Below are positions 22,619 to 63,030 of a stretch of 64,000 bases of DNA, piece by piece. The translations under genes and the position numbers were made by a program. The notes beneath the pieces were generated by a model, which saw only the letters and a list, made by a program, of their open reading frames with translations, ran no database searches and had not been told where the DNA came from. This stretch comes from Spartobacteria bacterium (GTDB lineage Bacteria; Verrucomicrobiota; Verrucomicrobiia; Chthoniobacterales; UBA6821): positions 1,922 through 65,921 of the forward strand of contig CANKJN010000003.1 of the NCBI GenBank assembly GCA_947482345.1, read 5' to 3'. Within the stretch, counting starts at the first letter, position 1, and each line of letters opens with the position of its first letter.

Positions 22619-23155
22619 ATGCAGCCCCTCAAAAAGCTGGCAATGACCTTGGATTCCCTTGCCAGCAGGGAGCACTCACTCTTTGCCTCTTCAGATCTGA
22701 GGGCGGCATTCGAGAAGTATGATCAACTGCCAGTCCTGCTCTCCCGTGCAGTCAAGGCTGGTCTCCTCAAGAGGATCTGTCGTGGCATTTACCTCTATCC
22801 TAAGGGGGGGTATCCCATGGGGGACCTTCTCTTCCATACGGCGGCCCGCTTACGGGCCGATGAGTTCAACTATATCAGTCTGGAGACGGCATTAAGTGAT
22901 GCCGGACTGATATCCCAGATCCCGATGAATTGGATTACCATCATGTCCTCGGGCAGAAGCCATACCATTGATTGCGGCGAGTTTGGGCACATCGAGTTCA
23001 TCCATACGGAGCAACGTCCCGAGGAGATCTGCGGGGAACTCGCCTACGATCCCGCGCGCCATCTCTGGAGGGCTTCGGAGAAGCAGGCCCTGCGTGACAT
23101 GAAAATGACCCGGCGAAGCATGGACCTGGTCAGTATGAGGAAGGAGACTGCATGA
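22619..23155 (+). CDS. AbiEi-family type IV toxin-antitoxin antitoxin / transcriptional regulator
   Basis: 178 aa with a winged-helix-like N-terminus (AVKAGLLKRICRGIYLYP). 4-nt ATGA overlap with the downstream AbiEii-like gene. Confidence 0.7.
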   Translation: MQPLKKLAMTLDSLASREHSLFASSDLRAAFEKYDQLPVLLSRAVKAGLLKRICRGIYLYPKGGYPMGDLLFHTAARLRADEFNYISLETALSDAGLISQIPMNWITIMSSGRSHTIDCGEFGHIEFIHTEQRPEEICGELAYDPARHLWRASEKQALRDMKMTRRSMDLVSMRKETA

Positions 23156-24024
23156 GTTCGGCGACACTCTTCAATTCCCTCGTTGACGAGGCACTCAAGT
23201 CGCGTCCCGAGTTAGCACTCCTGCGTCCCGTCGTGGAGAAGGAGTTGCTCCATCACGACATTCTTAGGGAGATGAGTCAGGAAGGACTGCTCTCCAGCCT
23301 CACCTTCATCGGCGGCACTTGTCTGAGAGCCTGCTATGGCTCTACGCGTCTCAGCGAGGATCTCGATTTTACCGGAGGGAACGATTTCAAGCGCTCCGAT
23401 CTCATGGAACTGGGGATGGTGCTCAGCGAAACTATCGGCACCCGCTACGGACTGAAAGTCAGCGTGAGCGATCCCGTCAGGACGGAAGGGAAGGTCAGCA
23501 CCTGGAAGATGAGTGTAGAGACCTGTCCTGGTCGCAAGGATCTTCCTGCACAGCGCATCCATCTCGATATCTGCGCCATCCCCAGTCACGACCCCCGCCC
23601 CATGATGTTGCGTACCCTCTATGGCGTCGATATGGGGACCTCCGGTCTCATCCTTCAAGCCCAGAGTAGGGAGGAGATCCTTGCAGACAAGGTGATAGCC
23701 TTGGCATTCCGCGAGGGGCGAATCAAGAACCGTGACCTCTGGGACATCGTCTGGCTCCAACAGCAGGGAGTGGAACTCCCCGTTCAACTGATCCCGCTCA
23801 AGATCCACGACCACCGCCGCTCCAAGGACGAGTTTCGATCACTCCTGCTGGAGAGGGTGGGGGAGTTGAGAAAGAGCGAGGCGCTTAGGAAAGACTTCAT
23901 CAAGGAGATGAGACGATTCCTTCCCGTGGCCACGGCGGCCCAGACCGTGGAACAGGAACCTTACTGGCGGTATTTGACTCAAGTTATTGGGGAGGAAGCG
24001 GAGAAGGCGCTGGCTATTCTCTAA
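23152..24024 (+). CDS. AbiEii/AbiGii-family nucleotidyltransferase toxin (DUF1814)
   Basis: 290 aa with the pol-beta NTase motif [22 protein letters not shown]. Confidence 0.8.
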
Positions 24025-24046
24025 GGAACCGCGGTTCCCTAACCCA

Positions 24047-24202
24047 ACCAAGGTCACCCGCAGCGCCCTGCAGAACGCCGCTTCCATCAGCGGACTCCTG
24101 CTCACCACCGAGGTCACCATCGCGGACGCTCCTGAGAAGGAGAAGGCCCCTGCGATGCCACCAGGTGGCGGAATGGGTGGAATGGGCGGAATGGACTACT
24201 AA
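24047..24202 (+). pseudogene. Duplicated groEL 3'-end fragment
   Basis: Encodes [51 protein letters not shown], nearly identical to the groEL C-terminus. The copy continues through a second terminator. Confidence 0.85.
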
Positions 24203-24233
24203 GTCCAAGCCTAGCCTAAAAAGCTCAACAGAG

Positions 24234-24267
24234 AGCCGGGTCAGCAATGACCCGGCTCTTTCTGTTT
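24234..24267 (+). terminator. Second copy of the groEL terminator
   Basis: Stem AGCCGGGTCA, loop GCAA, stem TGACCCGGCT, then CTTTCTGTTT. Confidence 0.7.
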
Positions 24268-24445
24268 CTAGGCTTGGAGGCTTGGGATTTTGGCGCAGGG
24301 CGTTGTTGCTGCTCGGTCAGCGTAGGTTCACTACGCTTTCCCTCGCGACGCCTAGCCCTGCATCCAAACTTCCAAGCCTCGACTGCAGTGGGGAAGGTCA
24401 GCAGTCTTTGGTGGCTTCGAGTTCGGTTAAAATCACGAAATCTTA

Positions 24446-30954: not shown

Positions 30955-31022
30955 AGTCTCACCCCGCTTTTCAATCCATCACCTCTTTCCCTAGCTCCCA
31001 ACTTCCAGCTCCCAGCTACCAT

Positions 31023-33910: not shown

Positions 33911-34235
33911 AATCAGGAAAGGAGAAAGAAATCCCTGAGGGCCGGCTGATTTCTAGCGCAGAAGTAGGGGAAAACTCACAGGGATGAAGGGGATAAAGGG
34001 GATGGGAGAAATCCCCTGTCCCCGATCGTATCCAGCATATTACAGTGACACTGGGGGCACGGATCAGCCCAACTGTTCCAAAATCCTTTTCATCCCCTTC
34101 ATCCCTGTGAAATGTCAGGGATTCTCTGACTCCTTTTTTCCGGATCAAACCTGCAGCGTCGCTGGTACTTGAAGCATCCAAACGGAGGTTTGGCAGGGAA
34201 GTCCTTTCCTAAGCCGATCGCCTTGAACTGTTGCC
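33911..34235. repeat. Direct repeat copy 1 (decayed MidA-like gene 3' end plus its downstream region)
   Basis: Aligns with 35800-36168. The 34150-34235 part is a frameshifted copy of the methyltransferase C-terminus, with a 14-nt deletion. Confidence 0.8.
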
Positions 34236-35049: not shown

Positions 35050-35367
35050 ATGAAACTCTACGTAGGCAATCTGACCTTTGACACCACCGACCAGGATCTC
35101 CGTGATCTCTTCACCCAGTACGGCAAGCCGACCGAGGTCGCCCTGGTCACCGACCATGAAACCGGCCGTTCCCGCGGATTCGGCTTTGTCACCATGGGCA
35201 ACGCTGAGGAAGGCAACGCAGCCATCGCGGCACTTGAGGGCAAGGACTTCCAGGGTCGCAACCTGACCGTCAACGAGGCCCGTCCCCGAGAGGATCGTCC
35301 TCCAGGAAACAGGGGCGGAGGCCGCTCCTTCGGTGGCGACCGCGATCGCGGTCCTCGCCGTTATTAG
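35050..35367 (+). CDS. RRM-type RNA-binding protein with a Gly/Arg-rich tail
   Basis: RNP2 LYVGNL, RNP1 RGFGFVTM and a C-terminal RGG-like tail. The stop TAG (35365-35367) lies in the MITE terminus. Confidence 0.9.
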
Positions 35368-35645
35368 GGAAGGGCTGATTAAATCGCATAGAGGCCGTTG
35401 CGGGAAGAACTGGCCGCGGGCAAGGCGGCTTGGCGCGAGCATCCCCGCAGCGGGCTGTAAGTGCCAAGCCAACACAGCCCCCGGCCTGTTATCTCCGCAA
35501 CCCGCAGGGCTGAATCCATTTGTCGATTTTTGTGGCGTTGCTCGCTCGGGCGAGACCGCTGCGGGTATCGCCCAGCACTCGCGCCTTCAAAAATCAGCAA
35601 ATGCTCTTCAGCGGCCTTCATGGGATTAAATCAGCACTTCCCTAG
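35364..35645 (-). mobile_element. MITE-like element, copy M2 (inverted relative to M1)
   Basis: Reverse complement of 7966-8288, except for a ~45-bp internal indel. Termini are TTAGGGAAGGGCTGATTAAATC and GATTAAATCAGCACTTCCCTAG. Confidence 0.8.
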
Positions 35646-35799: not shown

Positions 35800-36168
35800 A
35801 ATCAGGAAAGGATAAAAGAACCCCTGAGGGCCGGCTGTTTTCTAACGCAGAAGTAGCGAAAAACTCACAGGGATCCGTAATGGATGCGAAGCAACGGCCG
35901 GGCCAGCCAAGGGGATAAAGGGGATGGGAGAAATCCCCTGTCCCCGATCGTATCCAGCATATTGCAGTGCCACTGGGGGCACGGATCAGCTCAGCTGTTC
36001 CAAAATCCTTTTCATCCCCTTCATCCCTGTGAAATTGCAGGGATTCTCTGACTTCTTTTTCCGAATCAAACCTGCAGCGCCTCGACTCCCGGGCGCTGGT
36101 ACTTGAAGCATCCCAGCGGAGGCTCGGCGGCGAAGTCCTTTCCGAAGGCGATCGCCTTGAACTGTCGC
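35800..36168. repeat. Direct repeat copy 2 (intact MidA-like 3' end plus downstream region)
   Basis: Aligns with 33911-34235. It is continuous with the intact gene at 36066-37253. Confidence 0.8.
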
Positions 36169-37253
36169 CCCATGGTGCCGGGGTTCAGAAGTGTCTGCAG
36201 GGAGCGCAGGTCGCCGCGCGCCGCATCGCTCGCGGCGGTGAGATCACCGAGTGAGCGGAGCCACGGTTCGGCGGTTCCGACGAGGAAGTGATGCTGGTCG
36301 CTGTAACCGAGGAGCCCGAAGCCGATGGAGCGGGCTTCCGCCGCCAGAGTCGTGAAATCGATCTGAGCGGTGATATCGCGCAGGCCGGGTTCGGGGAGGG
36401 GATCGTTGTAACGTTGATGATCCTGGTAGGCCATCACGGTGCCATCGGCCCGATGCGGGGCGTAGCGATCCTCTCCCACCTGGCCGTAATCGATAGTCAG
36501 GACGATGCCGCGTTGCAGCTTCGCATGCAGTGTCGCGAGCCATGGGGAAAGTCCCGGATTCCATTCGACCCGGAAACCGGGAGCGAGGTTGGTCGGCAGT
36601 TTCGCGGCGACAGCCCTCAGGGCGGGATCTGGAATAGGACGGGTGACTAGCCGGAGACCCTGTTCTTGTAGAACCACGCATTCCTCCTCCCAGACGCTGC
36701 CGCTCCACCGGAGCGAGTCGACGGGGAAGGCGTCCAAGAGCTCGTTGGAGAGATGGATGCCGGTGAATTCGGGCACCTCCTCGAGGGTAGTCACCCAGCT
36801 GACGTCGGGGAACGATTGCAGCCGTTCCCGTTGCTTTCGCTGATTCACGGCAAAGGGTTCCACTATGAGGAAATGCGCGGAACGGCTGAAATCATCGGAG
36901 CTCTTGGCAATCTCCCCGAGAATATCGGAAGCCATGCTTCCGTCGTTGGCCCCCTGCTCCACGATCGTGAATGGGGAGGGGCGGCCAAGTCGCTCCCAGA
37001 CTTCCCTGCAGACAGAGGCAAGGAGTCGTCCGTAGATCCCTCCGACGCTGACGCTGGTGAAGAAATCCCCCTCCTTCCCCACCCGCGCGCGGCCCGAGGC
37101 GTAGTAACCGTGCTCCGGGTGATAGAGGGCCGTCTCCATGAAGCGGCGGAAGGGGATGGCGCCGCTCTGCTGAATCTCCTTTATGATGATGGAAATCAGA
37201 GGCGGTGCTGAAACCTGTGATGTGAAACCTGAAACTTGAAATTCCGGGTTCAT
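36066..37253 (-). CDS. MidA/NDUFAF7-family SAM-dependent methyltransferase (DUF185)
   Basis: The FRRFMETALYHPEHGYY N-terminal motif and overall family layout. The start is uncertain because the first ~15 codons are low-complexity word sequence. Confidence 0.75.
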   Translation of the reverse strand: MNPEFQVSGFTSQVSAPPLISIIIKEIQQSGAIPFRRFMETALYHPEHGYYASGRARVGKEGDFFTSVSVGGIYGRLLASVCREVWERLGRPSPFTIVEQGANDGSMASDILGEIAKSSDDFSRSAHFLIVEPFAVNQRKQRERLQSFPDVSWVTTLEEVPEFTGIHLSNELLDAFPVDSLRWSGSVWEEECVVLQEQGLRLVTRPIPDPALRAVAAKLPTNLAPGFRVEWNPGLSPWLATLHAKLQRGIVLTIDYGQVGEDRYAPHRADGTVMAYQDHQRYNDPLPEPGLRDITAQIDFTTLAAEARSIGFGLLGYSDQHHFLVGTAEPWLRSLGDLTAASDAARGDLRSLQTLLNPGTMGRQFKAIAFGKDFAAEPPLGCFKYQRPGVEALQV

Positions 37254-39030: not shown

Positions 39031-39360
39031 TTAGGCGCTCTTTTCCCCGGGCTCGAACGACGTGCCGCATCCGCAGCTTCGGGCCGCCTTCGGATTGATG
39101 ATCCGGAATCCGGCCCCCGTCAGGTCATCGCTGTAGTCGAGGGTGCACCCGGTGAGATGGGGGAGACTTTCCGGATCCACGGCAACAACGGCGCCATCCC
39201 GCATCGCCACGGTATCCCCATCCTGCGGAGCTCCGAGGTTCATCGCGTATTGGAGGCCGGCGCATCCGCCCTTCTCCACGGCAAGGCGCAGGCCGGGGGT
39301 TCCTTTTTCAAGGGCCAGTTCCCTCAGGTGCTTCGCCGCCGCCTCGGTAATCTCGATCAT
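39031..39360 (-). CDS. HesB/IscA/ErpA-family iron-sulfur cluster insertion protein
   Basis: 109 aa with GGCAGLQY and a C-terminal CGCGTSF motif. Confidence 0.9.
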   Translation of the reverse strand: MIEITEAAAKHLRELALEKGTPGLRLAVEKGGCAGLQYAMNLGAPQDGDTVAMRDGAVVAVDPESLPHLTGCTLDYSDDLTGAGFRIINPKAARSCGCGTSFEPGEKSA

Positions 39361-39440
39361 GATGATGTCATTTTATTGGAGTCGCTCCTTAAGTCAACGG
39401 GAGGCGGTGCCCGTGCCGTTTACTTCTTCATAATTCATAA

Positions 39441-39530
39441 TTGATGGCATCCGCCTCCCGGCGGACGGTGCCACCCTTCGGGCAACGACATCGTCGTTGT
39501 CTTCCGCGCGCCTTGCCAGGGACTTGGTTC
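39441..39530 (+). repeat. Structured repeat family, copy C (short)
   Basis: Shares ...GCCGCCTCCC..GGTGCCACCCTTCGGGCAACGAC-ATC-GTCGTTG..CTTCCGC...TTGGTTC with copies A and B. It lies directly upstream of mutL. Confidence 0.65.
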
Positions 39531-39549
39531 ATCATTCATCCTTTCCCCC

Positions 39550-41328
39550 ATGGGTTCCATCCGCCTCCTTCCTGACATCCTTGCCAGCCAGGTGGCTGCC
39601 GGCGAGGTGGTGGAGCGCCCCGCCTCCGTGGTCAAGGAACTGGTGGAGAACTCCATCGATGCCGGCGCCCGGCGCATCACCATCGAGTTTCAGCGGGGCG
39701 GTGCCCGCCTGATCCGGGTGACCGACGACGGATCCGGCATGGACCGCGCCGACGCCCTTCTCTGTCTGGAACGCCATGCCACCAGCAAGATCCGCGAGAG
39801 CGGCGATCTCGCCGCCATCACCACCCTCGGATTCCGCGGCGAGGCCGTGCCCAGCATCGCGAGTGTCTCCCGTTTCCGCCTCTCCACGCGCCGCAGGGAG
39901 GATGAGGCGGGGACGCTGATCGAGGTCACCGGTGGGAAGATCCACGGGGTGCAGGATTCCGGCGATGCTCCCGGCACCACCATCGAGGTGGCCGACCTCT
40001 TCTTCAACGTCCCCGCCCGCCGCAAATTCCTCCGGGGCGAGCAGACCGAGGCCGCGAATCTGCTGCAGCAGATCGAGATCCTGGCGGTCGCACATCCCGG
40101 TATTTCCTTCATCTGCAGGCGGGACGACCGGGAGGTCTTCCGTCTGGCCGCCACGGAGGATCTGGCCGTGCGGCTCCGCGATCTGCACGGGGAGGCATTC
40201 CTCGGAAAACTGATCAAGGTTCCTCCCCTCGAGAGCCATGGAGTGCGCGTGCATGGATGGATCGCCAGACCGGGCGAGGGGCGGAGTGACAGGACCCGGC
40301 AGATGACCTTCGTGAACGGGAGGATTATCCGGAGCCCCGTTCTCTCCCTGCCGCTCCGAGAGGCGTGCGACGGAGTCCTTGCCAAGGGGTTGCATCCCCC
40401 CGCGGTTCTCTTTTTCGAGATCGACCCGGCGGCGGTCGACTGCAACGTCCATCCCGCCAAGCGCGAGGTCCGTTTCCGGGATCCCGGAGTGATCCGAGCC
40501 GCCGCCCTGGAGGCCGCCCGCTCGGCTTGGGGTGCGGCTTCTCCCGCCGCCCCATCACTTGAGGCGATCGGCCCCGGTTCCGACCCGCTCTTCCCACCGA
40601 TCATCAATCCGTCATGGTCGCCTTCCGCCGGCTCCCATCAGCAGGAGTTTGCGGTTCAGGAACCCGACGCAGCCCGTGTCGCAGAGTCACCCACTAGGTT
40701 TTCATCCCCAACTTCCAACTTCCAACTTCCAACTCCTCCAGCGGTCCAATTTATTGGATCGCTGTGCGGCCGCTACCTCCTCTTCGAGGAGCAGGAGAGC
40801 CTCATGATCGTGGAGATCCGTGCGGCCCGGGAGAGGATCCTCTACGAGCGTTTCCTTGCACGTCTTGGTCAGGGTGAACTCGAGAGCCAGAGTCTGCTGC
40901 TTCCCGAGATCCTCGAAATGTCGGTGGCCGATCTGGCGTGGATCGACGCCCACCGCTCCATCCTCCGTGCAGCCGGACTCGTGGCCGAATCCTTCGGACA
41001 GGGAAGCCTCGGAACAGCGAGTCTCAAGGTCGATGCCATCCCCGCCGCCGCCGCGTCCCTTCCCGTCATGGAGATCGTGATCCGTCTGGTGGACGAGCTG
41101 AGGACCCTTGCCGAGACACCGACCCTTGATCTCCCGGGCCGCGAAGCCCTTGCCGCCTCCGTAAGCCGTCTTGCGGCGGCCGGAGCGAGACTTCCCTCCG
41201 GAGAGGAGGGGGGGCGGATGCTCCTGCGCGACCTGCTTGACTGCAATCATCCCTACGTCACTCCGAAGGGACGCCCCACCATGAGTCAGATGGCGCCCGG
41301 CGAACTCTCACGCCGCTTCACGGCCTGA
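39550..41328 (+). CDS. mutL: DNA mismatch repair protein MutL
   Basis: GHKL ATPase N-terminus (VVERPASVVKELVENSIDAG, TLGFRGEA) and a C-terminal dimerisation domain. Confidence 0.95.
   Translation: MGSIRLLPDILASQVAAGEVVERPASVVKELVENSIDAGARRITIEFQRGGARLIRVTDDGSGMDRADALLCLERHATSKIRESGDLAAITTLGFRGEAVPSIASVSRFRLSTRRREDEAGTLIEVTGGKIHGVQDSGDAPGTTIEVADLFFNVPARRKFLRGEQTEAANLLQQIEILAVAHPGISFICRRDDREVFRLAATEDLAVRLRDLHGEAFLGKLIKVPPLESHGVRVHGWIARPGEGRSDRTRQMTFVNGRIIRSPVLSLPLREACDGVLAKGLHPPAVLFFEIDPAAVDCNVHPAKREVRFRDPGVIRAAALEAARSAWGAASPAAPSLEAIGPGSDPLFPPIINPSWSPSAGSHQQEFAVQEPDAARVAESPTRFSSPTSNFQLPTPPAVQFIGSLCGRYLLFEEQESLMIVEIRAARERILYERFLARLGQGELESQSLLLPEILEMSVADLAWIDAHRSILRAAGLVAESFGQGSLGTASLKVDAIPAAAASLPVMEIVIRLVDELRTLAETPTLDLPGREALAASVSRLAAAGARLPSGEEGGRMLLRDLLDCNHPYVTPKGRPTMSQMAPGELSRRFTA
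40708..40735 (+). repeat. Heptanucleotide tandem repeat (CCAACTT) x3 plus a partial unit, inside the mutL linker
   Basis: Read directly as CCAACTT CCAACTT CCAACTT CCAACTC. It encodes PTSNFQLPT. Confidence 0.9.
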
Positions 41329-49805: not shown

Positions 49806-50119
49806 ATTTTCTCAGTGATAGTTCCCGACATCTATCCTGTCGATACCCGGCGGGTTGATTCTTGCACGCCTGACGCGCCATCAAGACTTCCACGCAATCG
49901 GTCGCTCCTCACTGTAGTGAGGAGGATCTAAGCGAAAGCGCTAGGGCTATTCCCTGTCGCGGCTGAGAAGGTGGGATTAGAGCTAGTTTATGGAAGCGGA
50001 CGTTCTGCAGGAAGGAGTTACGAAAACCGTCGATGAGTTCGGCAGCGGTTCCCTCGAGGAATATTCGAATACTCCCCAAACGAATAATGAATAGCGAACA
50101 ACGAATAAGGAATGAAGCC

Positions 50120-51931
50120 ATGACCAAAGCGACATCCAAAGCGAAGCCGAACCCCAAGGCGGGATTCGTGGCGAGATCCGTTACTGCCTCAAAAACAAAA
50201 CCGAGGCCGCAACTTCCCAAAACTCCCACCGGTATCCGGGGATTCGATGAGATCACTGGAGGGGGGCTTCCGACCGGGCGGCCCACTCTGGTCTGTGGTG
50301 GAGCGGGGTGTGGCAAGACGGTCTTTGGAATCGCATTTCTGGTGAATGGGGTGACCCATTTTGGCGAGCCGGGTGTCCTGATGTCGTTCCAGGAGAGTGC
50401 AATGGAACTGACCGATAATGTGGCCTCGTTCGGTTACGACCTGCAGGATCTGATCCGGCGCAAGAAGCTGGTGATTGACTGTGTTTGTATTGAGCGCAGC
50501 GAGATCGAAGAGGCCGGCAACTACGATCTGGAAGGCCTCTTCATCCGCCTAGGCCATGCCATCGACTCGATCGGTGCCAAGCGAGTGGTGCTCGACAGTA
50601 TCGAATCACTCTTCGGCGCCCTGCCCAACCAGTCGATCCTTCGTGCCGAAATCAGCCGTCTGTTTCGCTGGCTCAAGGCAAAAGGTGTCACCGCTGTCAT
50701 TACCGGTGAACCCGGAATCGAAATGCTGACTCGGCAGGGGCTTGAGGAGTATGTCAGTGACTGCGTCATCAAGCTTGATCAACGGATCGCGGATCAGGTC
50801 GCCTCGCGCCGTCTGCGCGTGGTCAAGTACCGGGGCTCGGATCACGGCACCAACGAGTACCCTTTCCTGATCGATGAGAGCGGTCTCATCGTGCTGCCGA
50901 TCACCTCGGTCACTCTTGAGCACAACGTTTCGATCGAACGCGTCTCTTCCGGTGTGCCGCGTCTGGATGCCATGATCGGAGGCAAGGGTTATTACAAGGG
51001 GAGCAGCGTGCTGGTCTCGGGCACGGCCGGCACCGGCAAGAGCAGCCTGGCCGCGCACTTTGTCGATGCGGCCTGTCGCAGGGGCGATCGCGCCATCTAT
51101 TTTACCTTTGAGGAGCCGGCCAAGCAGATCATCCGCAACATGCGCTCCATCGGGATCGACCTACAGCACTGGGTGAAGAAGGGGTTGTTGGAATTTCACG
51201 CCACACGCCCGAGTACACACGGCCTGGAAAAGCACCTGCTCCTGATGGAAAGCGCCATTAATGACTTCATACCCAAGGTGGTGTCGGTCGATCCCCTGAA
51301 CAGTTTCCTCATGGGTGGCAATCAGCTCGAGGTGAAGGGAATGATGATGCGCCTGGTGAATTTCATGAAGACACGCGGGATCACCAGTGTGTTTACCAGT
51401 CTGACCTCGGGCGGTGCGCCGATCGAGCGGACCGACATCGCGATCTCCTCCCTGATCGACACCTGGATCCTGCTGCGCGATACCGATTATGGCGGGGAGC
51501 GTAACCGCACGCTGTACGTGCTGAAGTCGCGCGGAATGCCGCACTCGAACCAGATTCGTGAGTTTCTGTTGACAGACAAGGGTATCAAATTGAGCGATGT
51601 CTATGTCGGCGCGGCCGGCGTGCTGACCGGGACGGCACGGTTGAATCAGGAGGCCATCGATGCCGCCGCGAAATTGCTGCGCGAGCAGGAAGTGAAGCGG
51701 GGCCGCGACGAACTCGAAGGGAAGCACCGGATCATGGAAGCGCAGATCGCCGCCATGCGCGCCGAGTTTGCCGTGCAGGAACTGGCCAGCAAGAAAGTCA
51801 CCGATGTGCAACAGGCCATCGAGATGATGGCAACCAAGCAGCGTCAACAGATGTCGCGTGCCCGAGGAGCTGATATCACCCCCCCCCCCGGATTTCACGC
51901 CGTGACAACCGAAGTGAATCCAAATGAATAG
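50120..51931 (+). CDS. kaiC: KaiC-family double-domain RecA-like ATPase with a C-terminal coiled-coil extension
   Basis: Two Walker A motifs (GGAGCGKT, GTAGTGKS). The GIRGFDEITGGGLP entry motif and the CII region DIAISSLIDTWILLR (Ser-Ser at the phospho-site position) are present. About 100 aa of heptad-like tail follow CII. The ATG at 50120 follows a low-complexity leader. Confidence 0.85.
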   Translation: MTKATSKAKPNPKAGFVARSVTASKTKPRPQLPKTPTGIRGFDEITGGGLPTGRPTLVCGGAGCGKTVFGIAFLVNGVTHFGEPGVLMSFQESAMELTDNVASFGYDLQDLIRRKKLVIDCVCIERSEIEEAGNYDLEGLFIRLGHAIDSIGAKRVVLDSIESLFGALPNQSILRAEISRLFRWLKAKGVTAVITGEPGIEMLTRQGLEEYVSDCVIKLDQRIADQVASRRLRVVKYRGSDHGTNEYPFLIDESGLIVLPITSVTLEHNVSIERVSSGVPRLDAMIGGKGYYKGSSVLVSGTAGTGKSSLAAHFVDAACRRGDRAIYFTFEEPAKQIIRNMRSIGIDLQHWVKKGLLEFHATRPSTHGLEKHLLLMESAINDFIPKVVSVDPLNSFLMGGNQLEVKGMMMRLVNFMKTRGITSVFTSLTSGGAPIERTDIAISSLIDTWILLRDTDYGGERNRTLYVLKSRGMPHSNQIREFLLTDKGIKLSDVYVGAAGVLTGTARLNQEAIDAAAKLLREQEVKRGRDELEGKHRIMEAQIAAMRAEFAVQELASKKVTDVQQAIEMMATKQRQQMSRARGADITPPPGFHAVTTEVNPNE

Positions 51932-52622
51932 GAAAGCTGTAGCGCACAACATCAAGGCGGCGAACGGCAAAGCAGGCCCTGATTTCTTTTCGCTGAGGCT
52001 GTATGTCGTCGGAGAGACGCCGAAGTCGCAAGCGGCCATTGCCAATCTGGAGAAGATTTGCGGGGAGTATCTTGCCGGGCACCATCAGATCGAAGTCATT
52101 GATCTGCTGAAAAATCCGCAACTCGCGCTGGATCATCAGATCGTGGCGATCCCGACGCTTGTCATCGAGCAACCGCTTCCGGTGCGCAGGATCATCGGCG
52201 ATCTCTCCGATACCGACCGGGTGCTGATCGCCCTTGGCTTGAGGGAGCTCCCGCCACGCGCGATAAGAACACTGCCGAACTTTTACGAATGGAACTATTA
52301 CACGCGTTCCAGTGACCTCGTACCATGCGAGGCCATCGGATTCACGGGCTCAAACCTTGGTCTGGTTCAAAGTCTCCCGGAAATCGCGGGTAGCAACGAG
52401 AAGCTTGTCATGAAGGATTGGGAAGTGACGATTCCAGAGGGAAAGATATCGCCCGCTCAGATCCTGAGACGCGGTGATTACCTGGTCTGGGATGGGACCG
52501 CCTTGAGAGTCTGGGGGGATCAGGACTTCAAAGAGAACTTTCAGCCAATGAAGCCTCCGTCCTCACTTCAAGCTGGAACACCCAGGAATCTCAGGGTGAT
52601 AACGCTCCCGAATCCCCAGTGA
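51924..52622 (+). CDS. kaiB: KaiB-domain protein fused to a ~125-aa C-terminal domain of unknown function
   Basis: The N-terminal thioredoxin-like KaiB signature is LRLYVVGETPKSQAAIANLEKIC...IEVIDLLKNPQLALDHQIVAIPTLV. The remainder has no motif I recognise. 8-nt overlap with kaiC. Confidence 0.75.
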   Translation: MNRKAVAHNIKAANGKAGPDFFSLRLYVVGETPKSQAAIANLEKICGEYLAGHHQIEVIDLLKNPQLALDHQIVAIPTLVIEQPLPVRRIIGDLSDTDRVLIALGLRELPPRAIRTLPNFYEWNYYTRSSDLVPCEAIGFTGSNLGLVQSLPEIAGSNEKLVMKDWEVTIPEGKISPAQILRRGDYLVWDGTALRVWGDQDFKENFQPMKPPSSLQAGTPRNLRVITLPNPQ

Positions 52623-53456
52623 TCAGGATTGGATCGAGTCAATCGTCGGGAGGCGGTGTCTGCGTTCTCCAAGCCGGGGGATGCAGGCGATGAGGGCCTT
52701 GGTGTAGGGATGCTGGGGATTGCGGAGGATCTGGTCGGTCTCCCCATACTCGACGACCTCGCCCCGGTACATCACGGCCACATGGCGGGCGAGACCGCGG
52801 ATGATGGCGAAATTGTGGGTGATCAGGAGCACCGCCATGCCGAGGTCGCGCTGGAGTTCCCGAAGCTTGTCGAGGATCTGCTTCTGGATCGTGACATCGA
52901 GCGCCGTGGTCGGTTCATCGGCGATCAGAAGGTCAGGACGCGCCGAAAGAGCCATGGCGATCATCACGCGCTGCTGCATGCCGCCGCTGAGTTGGTGGGG
53001 GTAGTCGTGGAGTCTCGAAGCCGGATCGACGATCCCGACGGCATCAAGCCAGCGGATGATCTCGGAATCGATGTCGGTCACGTCGGGCCGGTGGAGACGA
53101 ATCATCTCCGCGATCTGGCTGCGAATCGTGTAGACGGGGTTGAGCGAGGTGGAGGGCTCCTGGAAGATGTAGGCGATCTTCCCCCCGCGAACCTCGCGAA
53201 GCTCCGCATCCGAGGCCTTCAGAAGGTCCTTCCCTTCAAAGAGGATCTCACCGCCCTGATAGACGGCGGGAGGTGTGGGTAGAAGTTGCGAGATCGCGAG
53301 CGCGGTCACGCTCTTGCCGCTGCCGCTCTCACCGACGATCGCAAGGGTTTCGCCTTTGCCAAGCTCAAGGGAAACTCCCTTGAGGGCCGGGGTGATGGTC
53401 TCGCCCGAGCGGAAAGCGATTTTGAGGTTGCGGATGGAGAGCATGGGAAAAGGCAA
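52623..53456 (-). CDS. Peptide/nickel ABC transporter ATP-binding protein (DppD/OppD-like)
   Basis: Walker A GESGSGKS, signature [12 protein letters not shown], Walker [13 protein letters not shown] and the OppD-type C-terminal extension. Confidence 0.85.
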
Positions 53457-53471
53457 ATTATGAAGGATGAA

Positions 53472-53852
53472 TTATGAAGTATGAAGGGCAGAGGCCTTGG
53501 TCTTCTTGGAAATGGTCGTGAGGATTGCGATGAGCTGATCGCACTCATGATAGAGATCCTTCAATTTCCGAGAGCTGACGATATCAGATTCAACGAGCAA
53601 CTCGAGCCAGTAGGCGGTTTCATCAAGCTCCTTGATGCAAACTCCGATGATGGAGATGAACTCTGCTTTGGACCTGGAGCGCTTGGCTTCGCGGAAATTG
53701 GCTCCAACTGATGTTCCTGATCTCAGAGCCTGCTTTCCCAATACTTGGGCCTGCGTGTTCTTGGGAAGGGAACAGTAAAGCCTGATCATCCGAAGGGCGA
53801 ACTCCTTCGTCCTTGCGGAAAGCTCAACAGGGGGTGTTTTTTCATTTTTCAT
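53472..53852 (-). CDS. Four-helix-bundle protein (23S rRNA intervening-sequence protein family, TIGR02436-like)
   Basis: Motifs FALRMIRLY...LGKQALRSGTSVGANFREA...EF...KELDETAYWLELL. Start chosen at MKNEK (53852). Confidence 0.8.
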   Translation of the reverse strand: MKNEKTPPVELSARTKEFALRMIRLYCSLPKNTQAQVLGKQALRSGTSVGANFREAKRSRSKAEFISIIGVCIKELDETAYWLELLVESDIVSSRKLKDLYHECDQLIAILTTISKKTKASALHTS

Positions 53853-53898
53853 TCTGCATTTTTCCTTTCCTTCATCCCTCATAACTCATCCTTCATCA

Positions 53899-54777
53899 TT
53901 ACCCGCGGCTTTCCGCCGCCTCCCTGAGCGCATCGCCTGCAAGAAAGAATGACAGCGAGGCAATCAGGATGGCGAGTCCCGGGAAGAGGATGAGCCACCA
54001 GGCGTCGAGCAGGTAGGTCTTCCCGTCGGCGATGATGTTGCCCCAGGTGGCCTGCGGTGGCTGGACGCCGAAGCCGAGGAAGCTCAGTCCTGCTTCCGAG
54101 AGGATCGCCTCGGGAATGCCTAGCACGGCGGTCACTAGGATCGGTGCCGCGGCATTGGGGAGAATGTGGCGGGTGATGATGGTCCAGGCGTTCTGGCCTA
54201 GAACTCTGGCGCTCTTCACATATTCCGCCTCACGCAGGGTCAGGAATTCCCCCCTGACAAGCCGGGCCGTGCCTGTCCAACTGACCAGGCCGATCACGAC
54301 AACGATATTGATGAGGCTCGGCCCGAGGAGGGCGACGGCTGTCAGCATGAGGAAGAAGGTGGGGAAGCAGAGCAGGGCGTCGACGGAGCGCATCAGGACC
54401 TGGTCGGTGATGCCCCCGAAGTATCCGGCAAGAGCCCCCACCACCATGCCGATCGCCAGCGAGACAAAGACCGCAATGAGTCCCACGGTGAGCGAGATCG
54501 AGGCGCCGTGGAGCATCCGGGAGAGGACGTCACGGCCGAGATTATCGGTTCCAAGCCAGTGTTGAGAGGAGGGAGGCAGAAGCTTCTGCTCAAGGTTGGT
54601 GAGATTCGGGTCGAAGGGCCAGTGATGGCCGAACTGGGAGAGGAGGGCCGTCCCTCCGGCCAGCAGGGCGAAGAGGATGATGAACATCACCGCGATCCGG
54701 GCGATCGGATCGGCTCGGAACCGTCGAAGGATCCGTGCGCTTGGTGTTTCGGAAGAAATCGTTGGAACGGCACTCAT
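53899..54777 (-). CDS. Peptide/nickel ABC transporter permease (DppC/OppC-like)
   Basis: Six TM segments and a BPD_transp_1 region. The ATG at 54777 sits 1 nt after the upstream permease stop. The ORF-track N-terminal extension overlaps dppB and is rejected. Confidence 0.85.
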   Translation of the reverse strand: MSAVPTISSETPSARILRRFRADPIARIAVMFIILFALLAGGTALLSQFGHHWPFDPNLTNLEQKLLPPSSQHWLGTDNLGRDVLSRMLHGASISLTVGLIAVFVSLAIGMVVGALAGYFGGITDQVLMRSVDALLCFPTFFLMLTAVALLGPSLINIVVVIGLVSWTGTARLVRGEFLTLREAEYVKSARVLGQNAWTIITRHILPNAAAPILVTAVLGIPEAILSEAGLSFLGFGVQPPQATWGNIIADGKTYLLDAWWLILFPGLAILIASLSFFLAGDALREAAESRG

Positions 54778-54778
54778 T

Positions 54779-55741
54779 TTATTCGAGTCGTACACGCGGA
54801 TCGACCGCCGCGTAGAGCAGGTCGGAAAGAAGGTTGCCGAGCAGGATGAGTGCCGCCCCGATGAAGTTGAGCGCGACGATGGTCGGGTAGTCCCGTTCCA
54901 ACACCGCCTCGTAGAAGAGGCGCCCCATGCCGGGGTAGGCGAAGATGCTCTCGATGATGACCGAACCGCTGATGAGCGCCGGAAGAAGCATTCCGATGCC
55001 GGTGACAAGCGGTCGGATCGAGTTCCTGAGGGCATGCTTGTAGAGAACCGTCTCCTCGGCGAGCCCCTTGGCCCGGGCGGTCCTGATGTAATCCTCGCGG
55101 AGCGTCCCGATCATCGTGGCCCGTAGGTAGCGTGACTGGGAGGCGATTCCTCCGATGGCGAGGATCGAGGCGGGAATCAGGAGATGCCAGAGGGTGTCGA
55201 GTCCCGCGGCAAAACCGCTGGGGAAGACGATGCCGTAGCTGCGGGTGCCGAGGATCGGGACGCCGAAGCCCTTCACCAGCACGATCGCAACCAGATAGGA
55301 GACCCAGAATCCCGGCAGGGCGATGAAGAGGAAGGCGACAAACGATCCGGCCATGTCCTGCCAGCGCCCGGCATGCCGCGCAGCATAGACGCCCAGCAGG
55401 GTTCCGAAGGAGAGGGAGATGAGGATGGCGGTGATGTTCAGCGCGAGGGTGGCGGGAAGGCGCTCCATGATCTTTCCCATCACGGGGCGGTCATCCTTGA
55501 TGCTGCGCAGATCACCCGTGAAGAGGTCCTTCATCATGAGTGTGTATTGCTCGTGCAGGGGGCGATCGAGGTGGAACTTCTTCCGGAAGTTGGCCTTCAC
55601 CTCGGCGGAGATCTTGGGATTGAGCTCTCCCCACGGATAGGGGCTCCCGGGGGTCATCGTGACGATGAAGAAGGAGATGATGCTGATGATGAACAGCAGC
55701 ACCACGCTCAGGGCGAGACGGCGGATGAGGAAGGAAGTCAC
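54779..55741 (-). CDS. Peptide/nickel ABC transporter permease (DppB/OppB-like)
   Basis: 320 aa with the typical N-terminus MTSFLIRRLALSV... and the EAA-loop region YIRTARAKGL. Confidence 0.9.
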   Translation of the reverse strand: MTSFLIRRLALSVVLLFIISIISFFIVTMTPGSPYPWGELNPKISAEVKANFRKKFHLDRPLHEQYTLMMKDLFTGDLRSIKDDRPVMGKIMERLPATLALNITAILISLSFGTLLGVYAARHAGRWQDMAGSFVAFLFIALPGFWVSYLVAIVLVKGFGVPILGTRSYGIVFPSGFAAGLDTLWHLLIPASILAIGGIASQSRYLRATMIGTLREDYIRTARAKGLAEETVLYKHALRNSIRPLVTGIGMLLPALISGSVIIESIFAYPGMGRLFYEAVLERDYPTIVALNFIGAALILLGNLLSDLLYAAVDPRVRLE

Positions 55742-55895
55742 TGAAGGAAAGGATGAATTATGAAGGATGAATGATGAAAGGAAGAGGAGTCACCCGGCAT
55801 AGAGCGCCGGCGTATAGCGACGGCGTTTTGCCAAATGGAAAAACGAAACAAGATTGATCCCTTCGGGCATTTCATAATTCATCCCTCATCCTTCA

Positions 55896-57788
55896 TCATT
55901 GTTTTGGCGCATACTCCGGCCGGTAGAACCACACCAGGTCGTAGCTCCAGCCGGCCTTGGTCATGGTGACGGGTGCGTCGATCCATTCGCCGGGTGAGGG
56001 GCCCGGGCGTCGGATCCGGTAGCTTCCCTTCCACATGACCGAGGTCTCCTCGGGGACAAAGAGGAACAGGTAGGGTTGGTCGGCATAGATCGCCTGCTGG
56101 AGTTTGCCGGCAAGCCTGATGATCTCGGGACGGGCGTATTCCTGCCGCAGGTCGGTCAGGAGGTGGTCGACTTCGGGATTGTTGTAGCCGATGAAGTTCA
56201 GTTCCTCGGGATGGGTCTGGCTGGAGTGCCAGATCCCGTATTGGTCGAAGTCGTATCCAAGCCCCCAGCCCATGACGATGGCGTCGAATTCCCCCTTGTT
56301 GACGAAGCGCTTGAGCAGGACGGCCCACTCGTAGATCTCGACCTTCACCTCGATGCCGACCTGCTTGAGGTCATCCTGGACAAGGGTGGCGATGTCGCGA
56401 CGGACCTCGTTGCCGTTGTTGGCCAGCAGGGTGAAGCTGAAACGCTTCCCCTCCTTCACCCGGATACCGTCAGGGCCAACCTTCCACCCGGCTTCATCCA
56501 GAAGCTTGCGGGCGGCGGCCGGATCGTAGGGGAGTGGTTTCACCGAGGGGTCGAAGAACCATACCTGCGGAGTGAAGATCCCGGTCGACTGCACTCCCCG
56601 GCCATAGATGATGTGCTTGATCATCTGGGCGACATTCACGGCCTGAGCCAAGGCTTGCCTGACCCTGAGGTCTTGGAACATGGGACGGCGGAGATTCCAG
56701 CCGATGTAGTTGTACCTGTTGCCGGGGACGCTGAAGAGGTCGAGGCGGGGATCCTTCTCCAAGCTCTTCACGGCCCAGGGGCTGACATCCCAGAAATCGA
56801 CCTGCTTGGTCTGGAAGGCGAGTTGGAGGGTGAGGGGATCGGGCAGGACGCGGAAGACGATCGAATCGAGCCATGGGGAGCCGAGGAAATAGTCGGGGTT
56901 CTTTTTTAGCCGTATGAACTCATTGGTCTTCCAGGAATCGAACTTGAAGGGGCCTGTGCCGATCGGCTTCCGGTTATAGGCCTCGGGCCACTTGGAGGGG
57001 TCGAGTTTTCCCAGGAGGTGCTCGGGCAGGATCGCCCCCATCCAGCTCAGGAGCGCCGGGGAGAAGGGCTTCTTGTAGCGGACAATGACCGTTTTCGGAT
57101 CCGGCGTCCCGACGCTCTCCACGAGATCGAAGTCGGAGCGGCGAGGGGAGGCCACTTTCTCGTCCATGATGGCCCGGCACGTGAAGGCGACATCCGCCGA
57201 GGTGAAGGGGGCGCCGTCATGCCAACGCACCCCGTCGCGCAGGGTGAATCGGATGATCGGTTCGGCCTTGAATGGGCGCTCCTTACCGCCGGGCTCCAAG
57301 GCGGGGAAGGGGAGTGGGTGGAGGTCATTTTTCTCAAAGAACCCCGCGATTTTTTCTGAAACTTCGAGCCCCGGCTGGCGTAGCGTGATGACGAGATTTT
57401 TCCCCTTTTGTTCAGTATTCGAAATCTCACCCTTAAAATTAAAAGCGGTATTGAGTTGCGATGCCGGTATCGTTGCCGTTTTGGCTTCTTCTTCAGTCGC
57501 AAACTGAAACGTTGTTTCCTGCGATAGCTCCCACCCGGTGGCCAGATCACCCACGATCTCGAGATCCTGATTGTATTTGATCAGGCCGTTAAAGATCAGC
57601 CCCCCGATCTGGGAAGAGGCCGAGTCGGCCTGCTGGATCGGGTTCAGAGTGGAGGGTTCCCCGAGGGTACCGATCGACATCTCGTTCTTCTTGGCCACCG
57701 AGAGGTAGGTGGCATTGACGAAAGCCGCCGCCAGAAGGAGAAGCAACGCAACCGGAATGCCGTAGAGAAAGAGCCGGAGGGAACGCAT
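55896..57788 (-). CDS. ABC transporter substrate-binding protein, family 5 (peptide/nickel)
   Basis: 630 aa with a signal anchor and SBP_bac_5-like core. It heads the permease/ATPase operon. Confidence 0.85.
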   Translation of the reverse strand: MRSLRLFLYGIPVALLLLLAAAFVNATYLSVAKKNEMSIGTLGEPSTLNPIQQADSASSQIGGLIFNGLIKYNQDLEIVGDLATGWELSQETTFQFATEEEAKTATIPASQLNTAFNFKGEISNTEQKGKNLVITLRQPGLEVSEKIAGFFEKNDLHPLPFPALEPGGKERPFKAEPIIRFTLRDGVRWHDGAPFTSADVAFTCRAIMDEKVASPRRSDFDLVESVGTPDPKTVIVRYKKPFSPALLSWMGAILPEHLLGKLDPSKWPEAYNRKPIGTGPFKFDSWKTNEFIRLKKNPDYFLGSPWLDSIVFRVLPDPLTLQLAFQTKQVDFWDVSPWAVKSLEKDPRLDLFSVPGNRYNYIGWNLRRPMFQDLRVRQALAQAVNVAQMIKHIIYGRGVQSTGIFTPQVWFFDPSVKPLPYDPAAARKLLDEAGWKVGPDGIRVKEGKRFSFTLLANNGNEVRRDIATLVQDDLKQVGIEVKVEIYEWAVLLKRFVNKGEFDAIVMGWGLGYDFDQYGIWHSSQTHPEELNFIGYNNPEVDHLLTDLRQEYARPEIIRLAGKLQQAIYADQPYLFLFVPEETSVMWKGSYRIRRPGPSPGEWIDAPVTMTKAGWSYDLVWFYRPEYAPKQ

Positions 57789-57922
57789 ATCAGGGAAAAG
57801 ATGAAGGAGGAATTATGAATGATGAAACGGTGAATCACAGGCTATTCCATGGAAACTTCCACCAAAAATCGCCTTTGGAGGTTGTCCCTGAAGGATCTCC
57901 CTGCTTTCCTTGTCGGTTCATC

Positions 57923-61287: not shown

Positions 61288-61914
61288 GTGGAACGGATCG
61301 AGAATCCGGAACTGATTCCCGTTCCCGGGAGGATGGCCCCGAACGAGGTGCTGGCGGAAGCCCGTGCCGAACTGATCCGAAAATCCGCGGGATTTTCACG
61401 GATCGAATGTGATTTCGGCGCCTCGAAGGGGAAATTCCTCTCGGAGAGCGCGGTACTGAACCCTGCGGTCTTCTTTGCCGGGATCGAGGGGCTTTCCGAC
61501 AGGGTGAATCGCGCCAACAGGAAGATCGAGCGTCAGGGAATCGCCAATGCATCGCTCTGGCGGGGTTGGGGAAAGGAATCCCTCGATGCCCTGATTCCCG
61601 ACGGGTTCCTAGACACCCTGCATGTCTCGTTTCCCGACCCATGGCCGAAGAGGAGGCATTGGTTCCGGCGCCTTGTGAAGGAACCCTTCCTTGAGGTGGC
61701 GGCAAGGAAGCTCAAGCCCGGGGGCGTGCTGCGCCTGATGACCGACCACCTTGGCTACTTCGCCTCGATGAAGGAAGAGGTTGCCACACATGGTGGTTGG
61801 GTCGAGGTCGACTGGCGGGATGGGTTTCAGCGTCCTGTGACCGAGTTTGAGACCATCTTTCTCGCCAAGGGGGATCCAATCGGTCGTGTTGCGGTGAAAA
61901 GAGGCGAGGGTTGA
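61288..61914 (+). CDS. trmB: tRNA (guanine-N7)-methyltransferase
   Basis: Motif LHVSFPDPWPKRRHWFRRL. The start is uncertain (GTG 61288 or ATG 61333). Confidence 0.8.
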   Translation: MERIENPELIPVPGRMAPNEVLAEARAELIRKSAGFSRIECDFGASKGKFLSESAVLNPAVFFAGIEGLSDRVNRANRKIERQGIANASLWRGWGKESLDALIPDGFLDTLHVSFPDPWPKRRHWFRRLVKEPFLEVAARKLKPGGVLRLMTDHLGYFASMKEEVATHGGWVEVDWRDGFQRPVTEFETIFLAKGDPIGRVAVKRGEG

Positions 61915-62129
61915 AGGGGTGCAAAGTCAAAAGGCAGAATGAAAAATGAAAAAGGATCAGGGCAACCGAATGGGATCAAAGGGGGAGTGAAGAGCCAACG
62001 AAGTCAGGGGGGGCGGTTTGCTTTTTAAGCGTATGCTTTTGCACTTTGCAAAAATTCCTTCGTTGGCACTGCGTGGCGGAAATTCCTTCAGGAGTTGATC
62101 TGACAAGGAGTTGAAGTCAGGCTGATCCT

Positions 62130-62799: not shown

Positions 62800-63030
62800 G
62801 TTGAACGGCACTTTGCTTTGCCTCAGCATCTCCCGATGCATTGATGCCGCCTCCCTCCCGGGAAGCTGCGGCACCCTTCGGGCAGCGACAGAGTCGCAGT
62901 CTACCGCACACCCTCCCAGGTGTTTGGTTCGTCCCCTTCGGGACTGTCCCTGCAGTAGAGGGAAAGGCTACGCGGTGCCACCAGGCACTCGGCGGTCGCA
63001 ATGCCGTGCCGCCCTCACGTGCTACACCTC
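62800..63030 (+). repeat. Structured repeat family, copy B (longest)
   Basis: Core 62836-62968 aligns with the reverse complement of 29347-29470. Hairpins are GCCGC...GCGGC, CCC-TTCG-GG, GCGAC-AGA-GTCGC (62885-62897) and ACACC...GGTGT. Confidence 0.75.

Follow-up and report, generated by a model that had tools for sequence, protein, structure and literature searches.

What is the inverted repeat that separates a solute-binding-protein gene from a permease gene in a freshwater verrucomicrobium, and why are its arms built of short repeated words? The stretch of DNA in question, here called the window, comprises 64,000 nucleotides of a Spartobacteria bacterium of the order Chthoniobacterales (contig CANKJN010000003.1, positions 1,922 to 65,921), and the element lies between an SBP_bac_5 solute-binding-protein (SBP) gene and the permease gene dppB. 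Word-like intergenic repeats had already been noticed in this DNA, and the original prediction took them for a recurring family of long-stem hairpins (mRNA stabilisers, attenuators or translation-initiation leaders) or for footprints of a mobile element. The reading favoured here, to which a probability of about 0.6 is given, is that the hairpin between SBP and dppB represents a copy or remnant, devoid of the open reading frame (ORF), of the termini of a cassette which rides in operons and encodes a PF05635 protein, its arms being mirror-image tandem heptamers.

The SBP-dppB hairpin and the cassette between dppC and dppD

The gene map was drawn from gene calls on contigs from four independent samples, at least 99.98% identical to the window over the overlap (three of them 100%). 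The best protein matches of the dppB permease, at 99%, 98% and 94% identity, are found in metagenome-assembled genomes of the Verrucomicrobiia/Chthoniobacterales; a cyanobacterial origin, to which kaiC, hesB and the STRR-like repeats (STRR, short tandemly repeated repetitive) could point, is rejected on these grounds. Related loci and scaffolds that were compared carry L-numbers (L001, L109 and so on). The features around the two elements, in the order of transcription, are as follows:

55896-57788, reverse strand: SBP_bac_5 solute-binding-protein gene (SBP)
55870-55900, reverse strand: R-arm (purine-rich), the 5' arm of the focal hairpin on the mRNA; ATGAA-core tandem heptamers with period 7
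55780-55869, reverse strand: focal loop, 90 nt, unique to the locus and its orthologues
55749-55779, reverse strand: Y-arm (pyrimidine-rich, G-free), forming the 3' side of the focal hairpin; stops 7 nt short of the dppB GTG
54779-55741, reverse strand: dppB, GTG start at 55739-55741
53869-53900, reverse strand: cassette R-arm; starts at the dppC stop, with SD-like AGGA and ATG motifs (SD, Shine-Dalgarno) before the ORF
53472-53852, reverse strand: four-helix-bundle protein gene, 126 aa, PF05635 (23S_rRNA_IVP), TIGR02436
53456-53487, reverse strand: cassette Y-arm; overlaps the last codons of the ORF and its TAA, and ends 11 nt before the dppD ATG (53444)

The focal arms, 31 nt each and 84% complementary, enclose 90 nt and extend a perfect 14-nt pair (55751-55764 / 55871-55884) that had been correctly picked out before. 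Both consist of tandem heptamers, AAGGATG/AATTATG/AATGATG and their complements, which share an ATGAA/TTCAT core; the tandem heptamer, in places octamer, nature of the words had not been recognised in the original prediction. The SBP stop codon TGA (55896-55898) lies inside the R-arm, and the loop holds a called 30-aa ORF without family match. The transcript of the focal element folds at -55.1 kcal/mol (z = -5.0), a stability that none of 200 shuffles reaches. The inverted pairs upstream of the extracytoplasmic function (ECF) sigma factor gene (61910-62080, z = -0.2) and of thiL (14590-14800, z = -1.6) fold no better than shuffles. An attenuator had been among the roles proposed for such hairpins, but neither this reading nor that of a terminator holds: a terminator scan of 55742-55905 found no terminator-like site and no T-run, CCTTTCCTTCA and then the GTG standing directly after the stem.

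The longest inverted pair of the window, which had been missed, is located about 2 kb from the focal element, between dppC and dppD (53456-53487 / 53869-53900; 32 nt, 88% complementary). It belongs to the same word family and encloses a whole gene: its arms close a 381-nt loop holding the PF05635 gene, for a total of 445 nt. The encoded four-helix-bundle protein scores 71.8 bits against PF05635 (cut-off 33.8) and 90.6 bits against TIGR02436 (cut-off 24), and its closest solved relative is PDB 2rld (E = 9.5e-23), a structure with five chains. The outer stem of this cassette is present in both the minimum-free-energy and the centroid folds of a 471-nt transcript. The focal Y-arm together with the next 5 nt is 97% identical, over 36 nt, to the 3' terminus of metagenomic four-helix-bundle cassettes. 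Furthermore, in the related locus L109 a full cassette fills the SBP-dppB spacer, the very site of the ORF-less hairpin of the window. The focal element is thus best read as an ORF-less version of the cassette termini, which would be either a remnant or a non-coding derivative.

Comparison of relatives indicates that both sites are variable. The dppC-dppD spacer contains arms and gene in L001, L002, L003, L006, L014, L015 and L017, and is empty in L004, L007, L008, L010, L012, L013, L016 and L019, where it measures 4-13 nt (about 20 nt in L019). In L001, identity to the window reaches 98-99% in the flanking genes and only 66% in the inserted gene, whose best match is a different lineage, and L006 carries yet another four-helix-bundle lineage in this spacer; the cassette has therefore been replaced there. 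In L183, the cassette is present between dppC and dppD, yet the SBP-dppB spacer is just 5 nt long, from which it follows that the two elements were gained or lost independently. Similarly short spacers (5-33 nt) separate SBP from dppB in many other relatives.

Two further observations concern the SBP-dppB spacer. In the more distant Chthoniobacterales L021 (3900-4001) and L038 (2733-2831), it is occupied by a different, GC-rich and near-perfect hairpin, GTGGCATCGGCATCCTGCC (z = -3.6 and -4.4), which resembles a separate REP-like family (REP, repetitive extragenic palindromic). L083, a scaffold of the same population as the window, was considered as a strain variant of the spacer and rejected, being merely an assembly gap: runs of N (4653-4752 and 5810-5909) coincide with the focal spacer and with another SBP stretch. 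In practical terms, the arrays may thus break assemblies and shift gene-start calls, near-identical four-helix-bundle proteins being called at 126 or 137 aa.

Heptamer arrays in the window, in relatives and in other phyla

The word-like intergenic repeats of the window are real and non-random, and a recurring family of word-built inverted repeats is supported. Tandem Repeats Finder (TRF) detected 20 short tandem arrays in the 8.5 kb of intergenic DNA, as compared with 1.74 +/- 1.3 (maximum 7) in 200 dinucleotide shuffles. Arrays of period 7 or 14 numbered 9 (0.29 in shuffles) and those of period 8 numbered 6 (0.28 in shuffles). When coding sequence is included, period-7/14 arrays occur at 16 places, 13 of them intergenic and 3 within 55 kb of coding sequence. 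Among intergenic 7-mers, GGATGAA leads with 14 copies spread over 9 separate regions, followed by ATGAAGG with 13 copies over 10, the shuffle maximum for any 7-mer being 10. Lag autocorrelation over all intergenic DNA is weakly informative (z of about 3-4 at lags 7-10), since arrays account for the smaller part of that DNA. The repeats had been described as usually abutting start codons, which is true of about half, 13 of 27 arrays lying within 21 nt of a start codon; "usually" is too strong, and 6 of the 27 are located at or near stop codons.

A metagenome scan retrieved 80 loci whose proteins are 59-83% identical to the four-helix-bundle protein of the window, and arms are present in most of these relatives. 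The consensus of the cassette flanks reads AAGGATGAAGGATGAATT followed by ATG at the start of the ORF, and CATAA followed by TTCATCCTTCAT at its end. The start ATG coincides with that of a repeat unit, and the repeat also contains the TAA stop, both codons being in phase with it; the best pairing register of the arms is the one which juxtaposes start and stop codons. Successive repeat cores are separated by 7 nt in 189 of 235 cases and by 14 nt in 24 of 235. A same-strand ORF ends within 80 nt upstream of the cassette in 55 of 73 loci, and in 36 of these 55 the distance from stop to ATG equals 3 mod 7, so that the host stop is a TGA of the array. Downstream, a same-strand ORF starts within 130 nt in 55 of 75 loci. 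Since the flanking genes fall into at least 36 clusters upstream and at least 40 downstream, the cassette is dispersed. The earlier suggestion of mobile-element footprints is thereby near the mark for the ATGAA/TTCAT word family, whose arrays are the termini of a dispersed PF05635 cassette.

The association of gene and heptamers extends well beyond this clade. A tblastn search of plasmid records yielded homologues with 36-59% identity in 30 records, mostly cyanobacterial, the others belonging to Chloroflexota, Bacteroidota, Spirochaetota and Bacillota. At each of the 14 loci inspected the gene lies between short repeated words, for the most part tandem heptamers, and in 11 of the 14 the annotated neighbours on both sides are co-stranded with it. 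The words are specific to lineages, as the following flanks (upstream / downstream) illustrate:

Chlorohelix, plasmid 1: GGATGAA / TTCATAA (the word of the window), inverted
Gloeocapsa and Chlorohelix, plasmid 2: TTTTAGA / TCTAAAA, inverted
Nostoc C052 and Dolichospermum: AATTCGT x4 / ACGAATT x4, inverted
N. punctiforme: GTCGGAG / CTCCGAC, inverted
Planktothrix: AATCGTA / TACGATT, adjoining CCCCAAT, inverted
Euhalothece: CCAGTGA / TCACTGG, about 14 copies, inverted
Treponema: (TCCGCTC)6.6 upstream, preceded by a separate (AGGAAAG)41; (CTCTCCG)11 downstream, direct

Flanking arrays in direct orientation were observed at three loci, those of Treponema, Bernardetia and Chondrinema. When the 60-nt flanks of the 14 loci are pooled, self-match at lag 7 amounts to 0.543 upstream and 0.542 downstream and at lag 14 to 0.505 and 0.522, most other lags being at about 0.26 and the gene body at 0.259; on either side, lag 7 scores highest in 11 of the 14 flanks. 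Around the Chlorohelix and Treponema genes, the two records checked in this respect, the surrounding 40 kb contain few arrays, and the adjacency there is therefore not a background effect. Proteins that are nearest neighbours often share a word, even across phyla, and pairs that are 76% identical can have unrelated words; a specificity of protein for word is thus partly supported by these comparisons. The invariant feature is the 7-nt period and not the sequence of the word.

With these plasmid loci, the gene and the heptamers appear joined in six phyla in all, the period being constant at 7 nt. Two puzzles, both decades old, are physically joined in the window, within an ordinary transporter operon: the tandem heptamers in intergenic regions of cyanobacteria and a few other phyla, and the small gene for the "IVS protein" (IVS, intervening sequence), originally encountered within 23S rRNA.

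As a separate observation, plasmid four-helix-bundle genes occur repeatedly in defence operons (L170, L169, L177, L180, L167, L179). Their contexts include a place between DrmD and PglX, between DUF1156 and HEPN (twice) and between hsdS and hsdR, as well as beside cas1/cas2.

Function of the arms, rival explanations and known systems

Any function of the arms at the RNA level is proposed here from sequence comparison. The cassette itself sits within operons, between co-directional host genes, its R-arm following the stop codon of the upstream host gene and its Y-arm following its own ORF. Because 7 equals 1 mod 3, each of the three frames would meet a TGA stop and an ATG start in the R-arm, the two overlapping as ATGA, and the arm could provide an SD-like AGGA as well; insertion after a host gene would therefore be harmless, and the ORF would be translatable by coupling to that gene. 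The Y-arm would in turn rebuild an SD-less initiation region for the next host gene. Since one word family makes up both arms, in mirror image, the transcript can fold a stem of about 30 bp around the loop or ORF. This stem would probably serve as an intercistronic processing or stability element, for instance as a target of RNase III or as a 3' protector of the SBP message, and initiation at dppB may depend on ribosomes which terminate at the TGA inside the 5' arm.

Several results weigh against the favoured reading or narrow it. When the focal spacer and its orthologues were compared with 81 four-helix-bundle genes by blastx and blastn, the arms alone matched, and not the loop; the loop is without detectable four-helix-bundle homology, so that the element is at most a putative remnant. 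Neither a recombinase nor a transposase nor a target-site duplication was found for the cassette. In 71 distinct cassettes anchored on start and stop codons, the frequency of Watson-Crick pairs between the arms equals that expected from independent columns. Among orthologous SBP-dppB spacers, z ranges from -5.2 to about 0, and those of L004, L015 and L016 keep the arrays and lose the pairing (z of about 0), the 5' and 3' arms of L004 coming from different word families and L015 and L016 having arrays without stem. Any function of an RNA stem is hence not universally conserved, although the stem may be used in some loci. Given the absence of covariation and the loss of pairing in some orthologues, the arrays appear to be primary and the stem a consequence of their mirror arrangement, and structural selection on the long-stem hairpins originally envisaged is not supported. 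In addition, the TCCCAGC, AACGAAT, CAGCCTT and octamer families are mostly without an adjacent four-helix-bundle gene within the 64 kb. Arrays being common in this genome, adjacency within the clade is weaker evidence than the cases from other phyla.

One alternative, which we consider unlikely, is that host-selected REP-like intercistronic hairpins protect the SBP message and set the SBP:permease ratio, the likeness to cassette ends being incidental. In Escherichia coli, the REP element between malE and malF protects the upstream message from 3' exonucleases. The focal element is, like that of malE-malF, an extragenic palindrome exactly between a binding-protein gene and a permease gene and could stabilise the upstream message. 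Its fold is stable (-55 kcal/mol, z = -5.0), and orthologous spacers with different words still fold (z = -5.2, -3.0, -2.4 and -2.3). Unlike REP sequences and bacterial interspersed mosaic elements (BIMEs), however, its arms are low-complexity tandem words which show no covariation, and their pairing is lost in L004, L015 and L016 though the arrays persist. Relatives such as L183, with 5 nt, and many others, with 5-33 nt, manage without a spacer element. Moreover, the sequence of the arms, beyond their pairing, is conserved at unrelated sites and flanks a gene. Among the repeats found there is no conserved palindrome resembling the REP unit of E. coli, the REP consensus and the rest of the genome not having been searched, and no domain of the Y1 transposases associated with REP sequences (RAYT) occurs among the Pfam matches on the called genes of the window.

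A second alternative, likewise doubtful, holds that the arrays are sites for a protein which reads single-stranded nucleic acid in 7-nt steps and controls SD-less translation, the inversion being secondary. It draws on the translation context of this genome. An SD core (GGAG, GAGG or AGGA at -18 to -4) precedes just 8 of 52 genes in the window. The leaders of the 52 called genes are depleted in G, which makes up about 0.15 of the bases upstream of starts as compared with 0.30 in the genome, and C predominates at -1 and -2 of the start codons. The arms which abut start codons mostly present the G-poor strand of the word (dppB, dppD, SBP, mutL, sufB, clpX, thiL and the HAD gene); the downstream arm of the cassette forms a G-poor leader resembling the others of this genome. 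The purine-rich strand comes after stop codons, and stands upstream only of tig, kaiC and the four-helix-bundle gene, the few whose leaders are SD-like. Since so few genes have an SD core, a role of the G-poor, start-abutting arms as translation-initiation leaders, as originally suggested, is plausible.

Binding in 7-nt steps would account for a period that is constant across phyla while the words vary, and for arrays which abut the starts of SD-less genes. Candidate readers are the four-helix-bundle protein, putatively pentameric as the five chains of 2rld suggest, an RRM-type Rbp (RRM, RNA recognition motif), for which a gene is present in the window at 35050-35367, a cold-shock protein and ribosomal protein S1. 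Such a reader has been suggested before, both for the TAACTGA repeats (PMC4679880) and for the heptamers of Nostoc (bioRxiv 10.1101/2022.06.06.494920). On the other hand, it is putative, two proteins with 76% identity can have different words, a result that speaks against recognition of specific sequences by the four-helix-bundle protein, and many arrays lie after stop codons or far from starts.

Neutral slippage in low-constraint, G-poor DNA, with inverted pairs as chance matches from a small repertoire of words, seems very improbable. The arrays are indeed short, degenerate and different between relatives, their arms do not covary, and their density is specific to the lineage, with 24-25 per 100 kb in this clade versus 2.6 in distant relatives. 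Slippage nevertheless gives no reason for a period of 7 at the ends of one gene family in five further phyla, for cassette arrays in phase with their own start and stop and with the upstream host stop, or for paired arms which use one word in mirror orientation.

Classical miniature inverted-repeat transposable elements (MITEs), or footprints of transposons whose 7-bp target duplications multiplied through successive rounds of insertion and excision, are the least credible source: short non-coding insertions with terminal inverted repeats, present or absent among relatives, and the direct-orientation arrays at three loci recall them, but the internal sequences are unique to their loci (in 1.0 Mb of related DNA, focal-type loops match their own orthologues only, without any multi-copy internal sequence), no target-site duplication was seen on comparing filled with empty dppC-dppD sites, no cognate transposase is present in the gene list of the window, and most array pairs are inverted, which is not expected from target duplication.

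The operon-riding PF05635 cassette, which is the reading favoured here, touches on two known systems. The STRR sequences and the TAACTGA repeats of cyanobacteria have been unexplained since 1990. Heptamers of the TAACTGA type, known from Beggiatoaceae, Cyanobacteria and Bacteroidetes, lie upstream of SD-less starts and place a stop codon in each of the three frames (PMC4679880); those of Nostoc lie near start codons, their interacting partner being unidentified (bioRxiv 10.1101/2022.06.06.494920), and heptameric repeats are reported to be over-represented in bacteria (PMC4692102). The arrays of the window share with them a period of 7 in runs of 2-6 units, an almost exclusively intergenic location, a frequent end a few nt before an SD-less start, variability between strains, and stop codons in three frames in one orientation. 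They differ in that they occur in Verrucomicrobiota, comprise many word families (GGATGAA, TCCCAGC, AACGAAT and others), frequently form inverted pairs and are physically tied to the PF05635/TIGR02436 gene family. The TAACTGA word itself is absent, TAACTGATAACTGA having 0 matches in the window with up to 2 mismatches allowed, and arrays of CCCCAAT, the STRR1 word, were seen only at the Planktothrix locus. The word families of the window other than that of the cassette are tandem arrays of this STRR-like kind too, with units of 7-8 nt, and occupy G-poor leaders and positions after stops.

The second known system is the IVS of 23S rRNA. That of Coxiella burnetii, 428-444 nt long, has a 28-bp stem and an S23p ORF; RNase III cleaves the IVSs of rRNA, which have a sporadic distribution across bacteria, and the IVS has been termed a selfish element of unknown mobility (PMC4990558). 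The cassette is close to it in size (445 nt) and likewise has a terminal inverted repeat of about 30 bp enclosing a PF05635 ORF. In contrast to the rRNA elements, however, it is located in the spacer of a protein operon, between dppC and dppD, its arms are tandem heptamers, and it is known here from its sequence. No Rfam rRNA match was obtained in the window, the cassette site included, and the insertion into a 23S helix is accordingly not seen. A diversity-generating retroelement with an Avd-type four-helix bundle finds no counterpart either, as the called genes of the window contain no reverse transcriptase domain and the cassette adjoins genes of the dpp transporter.

The heptamer arrays at SD-less starts described here are thus a new instance, at the level of a phylum, of a known and unexplained kind, and their role as mirror-image termini of a dispersed, operon-riding PF05635 cassette, with a 7-nt period across six phyla, appears to be new. 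Neither Verrucomicrobia nor a four-helix-bundle gene is mentioned in PMC4679880, PMC4692102 or bioRxiv 10.1101/2022.06.06.494920. Among open-access papers and preprints, no link between PF05635, TIGR02436, four-helix-bundle or IVS proteins and heptamer repeats was found, so that an earlier description elsewhere is possible.

A broader proposal is put forward tentatively and may well not hold: PF05635/TIGR02436 proteins and tandem heptamers would form a single cross-phylum system, in which the protein binds or helps to generate arrays with 7-nt steps, the arrays at starts and stops (STRR and TAACTGA included) would be its landing or regulatory sites, and the rRNA IVS would be the same cassette, placed in rRNA rather than in mRNA. 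If the link between gene and arrays holds genome-wide, both puzzles would become testable, through binding to 7-nt arrays, IVS-like cutting of the stem and SD-independent translation, and a new kind of operon-riding selfish cassette would be defined.

Other arrays, repeats and genes of the window

The remaining word arrays and inverted pairs are listed below:

57789-57826, no strand assigned: ATGAA/TTCAT-family array in the 26-nt divergent SBP/tig spacer
39427-39549, forward strand: two TTCAT-family arrays in the same orientation, 39427-39442 and 39530-39549, the second abutting the mutL ATG
30988-31021, forward strand: TCCCAGC x4.7 array, ending 1 nt before the sufB ATG
50079-50113, forward strand: AACGAAT x5 array, ending 6 nt before the kaiC ATG
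10470-10507, reverse strand: CAGCCTT/CTGAAGG-family words abutting the HAD hydrolase ATG
14617-14771, reverse strand: octamer-word inverted pair GAACTCAT / TTCCTGAG with a 109-nt loop
61920-62070, forward strand: AAAGGCA/AATGAAA-family arm with a weak partner, downstream of trmB
16626-16659, reverse strand: AAAAGCT x4.7 array, 20 nt upstream of the called sppA start
24204-24285, forward strand: octamer words CCAAGCCT / AGGCTTGG, bracketing the terminator hairpin of a duplicated groEL 3' end

The array at 57789-57826 is G-poor on the sense strand of SBP and SD-like (AAGGAGG) on that of tig. The inverted pairs that had been predicted elsewhere in the window are all present. Upstream of thiL, the pair is formed by 14617-14639 / 14749-14771 (23 nt, 91% complementary) and sits between the stop of an Rce1-like gene and the thiL start. 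Upstream of the ECF sigma factor gene, it is formed by 61920-61936 / 62034-62050 (17 nt, 82%), with a nested pair at 61991-62003 / 62058-62070 (13 nt, 92%); over 31 nt, the 5' part of this region shares 90% identity with the four-helix-bundle gene of the window, in its leader and opening codons. The pair 24204-24214 / 24268-24278 (11 nt, perfect) brackets the terminator hairpin at 24232-24259. Two of the start-abutting arms were misplaced: the array at 39427-39442, assigned to hesB, lies 66 nt from the hesB start, and it is mutL which has an abutting arm, and the array said to stand directly 5' of the sppA ATG is separated from the called start by the 20 nt given above. Words of the CAGCCTT/CTGAAGG family also occur at 11440-11453, 16726-16752 and 22532-22557.

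Two arrays lie within coding sequence. A perfect CCAACTT x3.9 array in mutL (40708-40734) encodes PTSNFQLPT at residue ~386 of 592, preceding the C-terminal part; if its copy number changed, mutL would be frameshifted, and the array could thus act as a mutator switch. A CTGAAAC x4.9 array (37208-37241) occupies part of the first ~15 codons of a called Methyltransf_28 gene, of which the array encodes the N-terminus unless the start codon has been mis-called.

No known RNA families or tRNAs were detected in the window at gathering scores, and a relaxed RNA-family scan of 39300-39600 gave a chance miRNA match only. A dispersed GC-rich element of about 90 nt with the core GCACCCTTCGGGCARCGACA...GTCT.CCGC, which has no Rfam match, is present at 39441-39530, between the two TTCAT arrays upstream of mutL, and at 62841-62925, downstream of the ECF sigma gene.

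Longer duplications are also found. A 357-bp direct repeat (7438-7794 and 8950-9306, 94.7% identical) coincides with a called "158-aa" ORF (7417-7893) that seems to duplicate part of the gene at 8320-9864, which encodes DPRP (cryptochrome/photolyase-related). An inverted pair of 156 bp (7966-8121 / 35491-35645, 95% identical) and a direct pair of about 250 bp (33987-34235 / 35909-36169, 88% identical) lie in long non-coding stretches around the gene for the RRM protein, an RRM-type "RNA-binding regulator" (35050-35367). The 3' end of groEL is duplicated (22269-22500 vs 24042-24267, 88% identical), and between the direct copies are located AbiEi/AbiEii toxin-antitoxin genes (22619-24024, forward strand). 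The second copy still encodes the last ~55 residues of GroEL and the terminator hairpin, and the region resembles a gene-end insertion which brought a replacement end. Finally, this verrucomicrobium encodes a KaiC homologue of 603 aa followed by a 232-aa KaiB-domain protein (50120-52622).

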